DNA of 64,000 nt from Escherichia phage vB_EcoM_G17: the sequence record MK327931.1, one strand, 5' to 3'. The translations under genes and the position numbers were made by a program. Below, piece after piece: positions 15,596 to 15,685 of the stretch; position 1 is the stretch's first letter, and each line of letters opens with the position of its first letter. The notes beneath the pieces were generated by a model. That model was not told where the DNA came from and ran no database searches. It worked only from the letters and a program-made list of their open reading frames with translations.

Positions 15596-15685
15596 TGGTG
15601 GTCCCGACTGGATTCTAACCAGTGGTGTGTCATTAACTGTGACCGATTATGAGTCGGCTGCCTTCGGACGCTAGGCAACGGGACC
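15596..15685 (-). tRNA. atypical tRNA-like gene, anticodon loop CUCAUAA (CAU), about 18-nt variable region, encoded CCA
   Basis: Perfect 7-bp acceptor GGTCCCG/CGGGACC plus ACCA, anticodon stem GCCGA/TCGGT, T-arm ACTGG-TTAGAAT-CCAGT; D-loop lacks GG and the variable region is unusually long for a CAU tRNA. Confidence 0.45.

Follow-up and report, generated by a model that had tools for sequence, protein, structure and literature searches.

Escherichia phage vB_EcoM_G17 (sequence record MK327931.1) carries, in the 64,000-nucleotide (nt) stretch analysed here (the window), seven transfer RNA (tRNA) genes on the minus strand between 13.9 and 18.2 kb, as called by ARAGORN. The subject of this work is one of them, a gene with a CAU anticodon and a long variable arm that is embedded between tRNA-Ser(ACU) and tRNA-Asn(GUU) (Table 1). 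ARAGORN reports it as a 90-nt "tRNA-Met (cat)" with limits exactly at 15596-15685 (-). In a whole-window search, Infernal with the Rfam tRNA model RF00005 (gathering score 29 bits) recovers 15599-15685 over model positions 1-71 at 50.3 bits (E = 8e-8), aligning the variable region as an insertion; the neighbouring tRNAs score higher, at 60-70 bits. The RNA reads GGUCCCG UU GCCU AGCGUCCGA AGGC A GCCGA CUCAUAA UCGGU CACAGUUAAUGACACACC ACUGG UUAGAAU CCAGU CGGGACC A CCA. A 501-nt region is 100% identical to the Asteriusvirus jumbo coliphages phAPEC6 (MK817115) and Sharanji (OR545507). Public annotation labels the gene tRNA-Met; it is not annotated in phAPEC6, and the phAPEC6 paper does not discuss tRNAs. 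An earlier note on this DNA had described a perfect 7-base-pair (bp) acceptor stem with encoded ACCA, a CUCAUAA anticodon loop, a T-arm, a D-loop lacking GG, about 18 nt between the anticodon and T stems, and a location between tRNA-Asn and a tRNA-Ser-like gene. All of these are present in the sequence, with 18 nt counted between the stems and spacers of 4 and 7 nt to the two neighbours. ARAGORN and Infernal with Rfam, two of the searches that it had proposed, find a tRNA at this position, and a standard class I fold, which it had held up as an alternative, is not possible for 90 nt.

Table 1. Features of the tRNA(CAU) gene and its immediate surroundings in the window.
Feature	Position	Strand	Basis or remark
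Complete tRNA gene, 90 nt, CAU anticodon, class II long variable arm	15596..15685	-	ARAGORN, Rfam RF00005, covariation
Acceptor stem, 5' strand GGUCCCG	15679..15685	-	C4/C5 pair with G69/G68 (15600-15606)
D-arm GCCU-AGCGUCCGA-AGGC, Ser/Tyr (class II) type	15660..15676	-	U19 at 15668
Anticodon CAU (C34 A35 U36) inside the CUCAUAA loop	15649..15651	-	sequence and tRNA model alignment
Variable region, 18 nt, CACAGUUAAUGACACACC	15624..15641	-	insertion relative to the tRNA model
T-arm ACUGG-UUAGAAU-CCAGU	15607..15623	-	A56 at 15616, pairs with U19
Discriminator A73	15599	-	
Encoded CCA	15596-15598	-	
tRNA-Ser(ACU), upstream neighbour, probably co-transcribed	15693..15784	-	ARAGORN, Rfam; 7-nt spacer to the CAU tRNA
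tRNA-Asn(GUU), downstream neighbour	15519..15591	-	ARAGORN, Rfam; 4-nt spacer to the CAU tRNA
Predicted promoter TTGACT-17 nt-TAAAAT, TG extension, sigma-70 type	15795..15823	-	promoter scan, 10/12 matches

The cloverleaf was imposed on 12 distinct sequences, comprising the homologue set of the window gene, with 500 shuffles as control. Standard pairs are formed by 97.4% of the cells, compared to 74% in the shuffles. Changes on both sides are seen in 18 of the 26 pairs. Neither value is reached by any of the 500 shuffles, and no slid register comes close to them. These compensatory substitutions occur in every helix except the 3-bp stem of the variable arm, which is invariant. The minimum free energy (MFE) fold has a z-score of -2.8, the acceptor and T stems follow a 7/5 arrangement, and the anticodon loop, discriminator and CCA are intact. 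The gene is real, and its cloverleaf is under selection.

The absence of GG from the D-loop has a counterpart in the T-loop. The D-loop carries G18 U19, and the T-loop UUAGAAU carries A56. Position pair 19:56 is G-C in nine of the 12 sequences and U-A in three (the window, JNE01 and the strongly diverged L286), and it is unpaired in none. The D-loop anomaly is a replacement of the G19:C56 tertiary pair by U19:A56, compensated and not lost. Because the change at 19:56 is compensated, the gene has the appearance of a working L-shaped tRNA and not of a decaying copy.

The variable region (18 nt here, 18-20 nt in the homologues) exceeds the 10 nt above which a tRNA is assigned to class II. The proposed arm consists of a 3-bp GUU/GAC stem and an AAU loop, with four unpaired nt on its 5' side and five on its 3' side. 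The same stem allows a loop of 3 or 5 nt, and its flanks are ACA and ACAYC. Since the GUU/GAC stem is invariant in the phage subfamily, it carries no covariation signal of its own. The ACAGUUAAUGACACA arm is common to tRNAs with strongly diverged stems in phages of E. coli, Erwinia and Xanthomonas. Two other readings of this segment were tried and rejected. The MFE structure of RNAfold contains a GUCA/UGAC hairpin that takes G42 and U43 from the anticodon stem; it was discarded because the anticodon stem covaries as five pairs and G42/U43 are not conserved in Kaldavass or XaC1, two of the phages introduced below. The extra 13 nt were also considered as an intron, and group I introns have been recorded in fMet and Ile2 tRNAs. 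The segment is, however, kept in all homologues together with the class II D-arm, and the bacterial tRNA introns known so far, which belong to group I, measure hundreds of nt and lie in the anticodon loop, likewise count against this reading.

Homologues were found in phages and in metagenomes. A blastn search with the 90-nt gene against 50,697 phage records returned five Asteriusvirus isolates (four at 100% identity, the fifth at 98.9%), Erwinia phage Kaldavass and Xanthomonas phage XbC2 (both 84%), and Xanthomonas phage XaC1 (78%). The same search against 5,426 E. coli genomes gave no match, so the gene does not appear to have been captured from the host. Further copies were obtained by pattern scans of IMG/VR, metagenomes and GTDB genomes. 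The first pattern applied to viral sequences, CTCATAAT-N5-ACAGTTAA, yielded 28 chance matches in coding DNA and one real homologue, and a structure-based pattern was used instead. Copies lie on contigs of 355-371 kb, within the size range of jumbo phages (L018, L101, L286, L287 and L297), and on shorter soil and marine metagenome contigs; one (L243) is located inside a cluster of 16 tRNAs on a contig binned with a Cellvibrionaceae metagenome-assembled genome.

In Kaldavass and XbC2, an annotated suppressor tRNA lies 0.5-1.1 kb upstream of the long-armed CAU tRNA (L004:1866-1938 and L005:2433-2506). That of XbC2 has a CUA anticodon and is labelled tRNA-Pyl, and the Kaldavass annotation gives no anticodon. 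Kaldavass also has a 109-nt "tRNA-Arg" call near its long-armed CAU tRNA. In JNE01, the long-armed CAU tRNA is directly followed by a second, chimeric-looking tRNA (L161:2596-2668) whose 5' half is Asn-like, whose anticodon is CAU and whose acceptor stem pairs poorly, and an annotated HNH homing endonuclease is found about 2 kb away. This arrangement suggests recent recombination in the JNE01 tRNA cluster.

With its CAU anticodon, the gene could encode a tRNAIle2, an elongator tRNAMet or an initiator. Published mutagenesis identified C4-G69 and C5-G68 as positive determinants of the E. coli lysidine synthetase TilS; tRNAMet has U4-A69 and A5-U68 (PMC2500205; PMC12514573). The E. coli enzyme efficiently modifies a foreign tRNAIle2 in which C4:G69 and C5:G68 are retained (PMC12514573). 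The tRNAMet ac4C acetyltransferase TmcA requires C27-G43, C30-G40 and G44 and is blocked by G27·U43 (PMC2500205). Determinants of isoleucyl-tRNA synthetase (IleRS) are A73, C4-G69, C29-G41, U12-A23 and the D-loop pattern G16/D20/D21 (review PMC9976931).

The phage tRNA has both TilS determinants. Across the 12 sequences, 5:68 is C-G without exception and 4:69 is C-G in 11, and the remaining acceptor pairs (1:72, 2:71, 3:70, 6:67 and 7:66) vary freely with compensation. G27·U43, G30-C40 and C44 are identical or similar to their counterparts in E. coli tRNAIle2 and exclude the TmcA determinants; of the 12 homologues, one has C-G at 27:43, and 10 have either G·U or no pair there. Three IleRS determinants, A73, C4-G69 and C29-G41, are present, the last also in 10 of 12 homologues. 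The CUCAUAA loop, including A37 and A38, is identical to that of ileX. Constant 4:69, 5:68 and C29-G41 beside drifting acceptor pairs form the pattern expected if TilS and IleRS select on this tRNA. The marks of elongator tRNAMet are not found in it, given C4-G69, C5-G68, G27·U43, G30-C40, C44 and U3-A70. An initiator tRNAfMet was rejected on three grounds of structure. Initiators are marked by a 1x72 mismatch and by three G-C pairs at 29-31:39-41, and the phage tRNA has G1-C72 and only two G-C pairs near the anticodon loop (C29-G41, G30-C40, followed by A31-U39). Its D-stem contains C11-G24 and C12-G23, not the A11-U24 and G12-C23 that discriminate fMet tRNAs (PMC1635315).

Similarity to E. 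coli tRNAs was compared arm by arm, over 48 positions of the acceptor, anticodon and T arms and over 17 positions of the D-arm. Over the three shared arms, the phage tRNA is closest to ileX (37/48), followed by metT (31/48), tyrT (29/48), serV (25/48) and leuW (20/48). The D-arm ranks differently, with serV (13/17) and tyrT (12/17) ahead of ileX (10/17), metT (7/17) and leuW (6/17). Both tendencies are more pronounced in relatives: homologue L153 reaches 42/48 with ileX over the shared arms, the anticodon arm being identical, and the D-arm of Kaldavass agrees with serV at 15/17. By this comparison, the tRNA body is a mosaic of Ile2-like acceptor, anticodon and T arms and a Ser/Tyr-like D-arm. 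The E. coli tRNAIle2 has a class I body with a variable loop of 4-5 nt. Here the region measures 18 nt, and this departure, seen also in the long-armed tRNA(CAU) after rpoD in Paraburkholderia and Ralstonia, is what makes the gene a variant.

We postulate that the gene probably encodes a functional phage tRNAIle2 of the lysidine type, set on a class II scaffold, dependent on host TilS and reading AUA. The host RNA polymerase would co-transcribe it with tRNA-Ser(ACU) and tRNA-Asn(GUU) from the upstream sigma-70 promoter. Host tRNA-processing enzymes would then remove the 7- and 4-nt spacers, the CCA being already encoded. Host TilS, reading C4-G69 and C5-G68 as identity marks, would convert C34 into lysidine, and host IleRS would charge the modified tRNA with isoleucine, enabling it to read AUA. 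The Ser/Tyr-like D-arm and the 18-nt variable arm would serve as an alternative core architecture that TilS and IleRS presumably tolerate. The earlier note had hesitated between an unusual initiator and a lysidine-type tRNA. The determinant pairs speak for the latter, and the former is contradicted by G1-C72, the D-stem and the anticodon stem.

A tblastn search with E. coli TilS as query found no TilS homologue in Asteriusvirus, Kaldavass, XbC2 or XaC1. Lysidine formation would thus depend on the host enzyme, which fits the retained host determinants. Some jumbo phages, namely PA5oct-like Pseudomonas jumbo phages (H70-H80), carry a lysidine synthetase of their own, unlike the phage of the window. 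The codon AUA is rare in E. coli, at 4.9 per 1000 codons (PMC12514573 Table 1). In the phage, it is used 15.2 times per 1000 (79 long open reading frames (ORFs) of the window, GC 33%), about three times as often. The other tRNAs of the window (Thr-UGU, Arg-UCU, Ser-UGA, Gly-UCC, Ser-ACU and Asn-GUU) read ACA, AGA, UCA, GGA, AGU and AAY, all of them A/U-ending codons in heavy use in the phage. An AUA reader completes this set and an extra AUG reader would not, so codon usage favours an AUA reader.

Long-armed CAU tRNAs are not confined to this phage. The scan pattern CTCATAA-N20-32-GGTTCGAATCC gave at least 120 matches in IMG/VR and at least 120 in GTDB genomes. Among the genome matches listed, about 35 represent one 88-nt tRNA, the named ones belonging to Paraburkholderia, Ralstonia and Cupriavidus. 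It reads GGGCCGG AC GCCG UGCUGGUUGC AGGC A GCGGA CUCAUAA UCCGC C-UCC-GAAA-GGA-CACC GUGGG UUCGAAU CCCAC CCGGCCC A CCA. In both loci checked (L166:3171-3258 and L182:6163-6250, of Paraburkholderia saeva and Ralstonia thomasii), it follows rpoD directly, at a position occupied by ileX in E. coli and by a class I 79-nt tRNA(CAU) in B. cenocepacia. Its variable stem covaries at all three pairs among Burkholderiaceae relatives (UCC/GGA, GGA/UCC and UCA/UGA). This tRNA is probably the native tRNAIle2 of Paraburkholderia, Ralstonia and Cupriavidus. Its place at the ileX position suggests that, as a putative native class II tRNAIle2, it shows the long-armed architecture to be compatible with the TilS/IleRS pathway.

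In IMG/VR, at least 97 unique long-armed CAU tRNAs were counted; among those listed, about 62 have initiator-like 5' ends, and others are Ile2-like. Among the entries L036-L155 (for instance L055, L079, L097 and L141) are many CAU tRNAs of 82-94 nt with long variable arms that resemble initiators in their (N)GCGGGG 5' end and in an anticodon stem rich in GG/CC. For phage initiator tRNAs of class II shape, the literature searched apparently contains no description. Reviews list only Ser, Leu, Tyr and Sec in class II (PMC7609411; PMC9976931). For a long-armed CAU or Ile2 tRNA, no description was found in the searchable literature, an absence that is not proof of novelty.

The position between the Ser and Asn genes is occupied by different tRNAs in close relatives of the phage. 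With the same spacers, the slot holds a 79-nt tRNA(CAU) in PBECO4, SD-15_S21, A4, BF17 and CRJP21, and a 75-nt tRNA(CAU) in 121Q. Both shorter forms are class I and have C4-G69, C5-G68 and A73-CCA, and the 79-nt form has an 11-nt D-loop. Three alternative tRNA(CAU) alleles therefore alternate in one functional slot among close relatives, and the long-armed allele is the one common to Kaldavass, XbC2 and XaC1. The 79-nt tRNA of PBECO4 (L002:696-774) resembles the tRNA(CAU) located after rpoD in B. cenocepacia (L300:4057-4135): the D-loops are 11 nt long in both (AUGCUUGGUUA in B. cenocepacia and ACGCGUGGUUA in PBECO4), and both have a UUCGACU T-loop.

The predicted promoter lies 11 nt upstream of the tRNA-Ser(ACU)-tRNA(CAU)-tRNA-Asn trio, which makes transcription of the trio by the host polymerase plausible as far as promoter motifs can tell. 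It coincides with one copy of a 23-nt cassette, TTGACTAAATAGTTCAGTACTGA, that occurs three times in the window against an expectation of 0 (15795-15823, 16255-16283 and 16670-16692, all on the minus strand). The first two cassettes are followed by the -10 hexamers TAAAAT and TATAAT, giving predicted TG-extended sigma-70-type promoters; the third copy lies outside the region covered by the promoter scan. The cassettes look like a reused early-promoter module of the tRNA and small-ORF region.

Two other tRNAs of the window have unusual features. The tRNA-Ser at 15693-15784 (-) has the anticodon ACU, with A at the wobble position, in a CUACUAA loop. A wobble A is rare in bacteria beyond tRNA-Arg(ACG), and the loop of E. 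coli tRNA-Arg(ACG) differs from that of Ser(ACU) only at position 36. Ser(ACU) is also found in 121Q and JNE01; in the PBECO4-type relatives, Ser(GCU) fills this slot. Among the Ser codons of the phage, AGU is the commonest, at 22.8 per 1000 compared to 3.2 for AGC. The tRNA-Gly(UCC) at 18104-18176 (-), an atypical phage tRNA, scores only 41.7 bits with the Rfam model and has one non-standard pair in the anticodon stem; it was missed in the Rfam run with the default filter at the gathering threshold.

Compared to known systems, the phage tRNA is closest in predicted function to E. coli tRNAIle2 (ileX/ileY). It shares C4-G69, C5-G68, G27·U43, C29-G41, G30-C40, A31-U39, A73-CCA and the CUCAUAA loop with it, as well as the predicted route from TilS over IleRS to AUA. 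The class I tRNA ileX, 76 nt long, combines a 5-nt variable loop (UGGUC) with a GCUC/GAGC D-stem and a D-loop containing GG. What sets the phage tRNA apart is its 18-nt variable arm, its Ser/Tyr-like D-arm, U9, and U19:A56 in place of G19:C56. The short alleles of the sister phages agree with the long one in slot and spacers, C4-G69, C5-G68, C29-G41, G30-C40 and A73-CCA, but they are class I and only 29-31/48 identical to it over the acceptor, anticodon and T arms. The Burkholderiaceae 88-nt tRNA shares CUCAUAA, C4-G69, C5-G68, A73-CCA and a 3-bp variable stem followed by an unpaired tail of the CAYC type, and reaches 34/48 identity over the shared arms. In contrast to the phage gene, it is chromosomal and vertically conserved, and it has a GCCG-UGCUGGUUGC-AGGC D-arm, a GAAA-type variable loop and a single unpaired nt 5' of the variable stem.

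With the bacterial class II tRNAs (Tyr, Ser and Leu), the phage tRNA has in common the long variable region and, at 12-15/17 for window and homologues against tyrT and serV, the D-arm. It resembles tRNATyr in U8-U9 and A73, and its arm of a 3-bp stem and 3-nt loop recalls the GUC-AUC-GAC of tyrT. It departs from these tRNAs in its CAU anticodon, its Ile2-like acceptor, anticodon and T arms and the lack of the identity elements of seryl-, leucyl- and tyrosyl-tRNA synthetase (SerRS, LeuRS and TyrRS). The combination of a class II body with the anticodon of a class I family is known from allo-tRNAs and nematode nev-tRNAs, in both of which UAU, reading the Ile codon AUA, is a major anticodon type. 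Both differ from the phage tRNA, however: allo-tRNAs accept Ser and combine an 8/4 or 9/3 acceptor/T-stem arrangement with G73 or U73, and nev-tRNAs are eukaryotic and leucylated. Given the 7/5 arrangement, A73 and the tRNAIle2 determinants, no recoding is expected of the phage tRNA.

Several observations weigh against a tRNAIle2. C12-G23 stands where the E. coli IleRS determinant is U12-A23, and the D-loop AGCGUCCGA (A14 G15 C16 G18 U19 C C G A21) lacks the G16/D20/D21 pattern, unlike tRNAIle. The B. cenocepacia tRNAIle2 assayed with E. coli TilS in vitro is a short-armed tRNA of 79 nt, so these data back the C4:G69/C5:G68 rule alone and not tolerance of the arm. Most metagenomic homologues were fetched by a pattern that requires the variable-arm sequence, and the invariance of the arm is to that extent built in. 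Public records say tRNA-Met, a label that derives solely from the anticodon and is probably wrong if the gene is a tRNAIle2. If TilS acts poorly on this body, methionyl-tRNA synthetase (MetRS) would charge the unmodified tRNA, which would then behave as a tRNAMet. This leads to the reading of the gene as an elongator tRNAMet, its C34 unmodified or otherwise modified, that adds AUG-reading capacity. We consider it unlikely. It agrees with the CAU anticodon and with the ARAGORN and GenBank labels, MetRS identity lies almost wholly in that anticodon so that a tRNAIle2 lacking its modification is a MetRS substrate, and either the long arm or the unusual D-loop might hinder TilS. Yet U4-A69, A5-U68, C27-G43, C30-G40 and G44 are absent and the opposite tRNAIle2 marks are present, as is U3-A70 in place of the C3-G70 usual in Met and fMet tRNAs. 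Unless TilS reads both pairs, the constancy of 4:69 and 5:68 within a drifting acceptor stem has no explanation. Furthermore, AUG is not limiting, and the other phage tRNAs are directed at codons that are rare in the host. A recoding class II tRNA, charged by SerRS, LeuRS or TyrRS and inserting Ser, Leu or Tyr at AUG or AUA, is highly improbable. The Ser-like D-arm (13/17 with E. coli serV, 15/17 in the Kaldavass homologue), G1-C72, G2-C71, C11-G24 and the long variable region would suit it, serine identity resides mainly in the variable arm with the anticodon ignored, and A73 is a key discriminator for LeuRS and TyrRS. Precedents are the allo-tRNAs that put Ser at Leu codons (PMC5389517) and the nev-tRNAIle(UAU) that is leucylated in vitro (PMC3333845, PMC4300185). 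The details fit none of the three enzymes. For Ser, whose identity calls for G73 and a long, properly oriented variable stem, the discriminator is A73, the variable stem has 3 bp with long unpaired flanks compared to about 6 bp in E. coli serV, and 1:72, 2:71 and 11:24 are not conserved in the homologues. That SerRS does not read a 3-bp Tyr-like arm is in part the import of a Tyr-to-Ser identity conversion reportedly achieved by Himeno and colleagues in 1990. Charging with Leu requires A15-U48, G18G19 and A20a, in place of which the phage tRNA has G15, C48, G18 U19 and C20a; charging with Tyr requires U35, where the phage tRNA has A. It is TilS and IleRS that read the conserved pairs, not the synthetases of class II tRNAs. 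A wrong amino acid at every AUG or AUA would be toxic, and the ORFs give no hint of recoding.

A further proposal adds to the tRNAIle2 reading and does not replace it: beside decoding as Ile2, the arm may have a second job, such as escape from a tRNA-targeting nuclease or toxin of the host or service as a handle for a phage protein. We regard this as improbable. The turnover implied by three very different tRNA(CAU) alleles in one slot fits an arms race, the ACAGUUAAUGACACA arm is common to diverged tRNAs and to phages of three host genera, and evasion of host anticodon nucleases by phage tRNAs is on record (PMC10264068). Against it, nucleases usually target the anticodon loop, which is canonical here, the conservation of the arm is inflated by the way in which homologues were retrieved, and the chromosomal long-armed CAU tRNAs of Burkholderiaceae show the same architecture without phage-host conflict. 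To our knowledge, no nuclease targets tRNAIle2, which likewise counts against it. There is next to no chance that the gene is a decaying or non-translational element, whether a pseudogene or, as the earlier note had suggested, a stable RNA like T4 species 1/2. The D-loop without GG, the T-loop without C56 and an Rfam score of 50 bits, below the 60-70 of its neighbours, could be taken as signs of decay. However, the change at 19:56 is compensated and recurs in the strongly diverged L286, the cloverleaf is complete and its helices covary across homologues, the anticodon loop, the discriminator and the encoded CCA are intact, and five phage isolates carry the gene at 100% (four of them) or 98.9% (one) identity. 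A broader reading joins several of these strands in a widespread, apparently undescribed family of long-armed CAU tRNAs in which the phage ACAGUUAAUGACACA arm has a function of its own, and we hold this to be unlikely. The family would include the tRNA(CAU) of Paraburkholderia, Ralstonia and Cupriavidus, the Ile2-type tRNAs of jumbo phages and many initiator-like tRNAs of viral metagenomes. The arm could provide protection from a host tRNA-targeting defence or recognition by a phage factor, and an arm with its own function would account for the alternation of three unrelated tRNA(CAU) alleles in a single slot.

As a whole, the predicted function of this tRNA is ordinary and its structure is unexpected, and it leads to a wider family of long-armed CAU tRNAs for which no description was found in the literature. 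If it is a tRNAIle2, the phage brings a tRNA for a codon whose frequency is about three times higher in the phage than in its host, a classic case of codon compensation. TilS and IleRS would then accept class II bodies, as would MetRS on the unmodified tRNA, and the division between class I and class II would not be fixed by amino-acid family. The tRNA would offer a natural substrate for studying how TilS separates tRNAIle2 from tRNAMet when the core is completely different, and the three alleles in one slot would provide a clean system for the role of tRNA body architecture in phage-host conflict.

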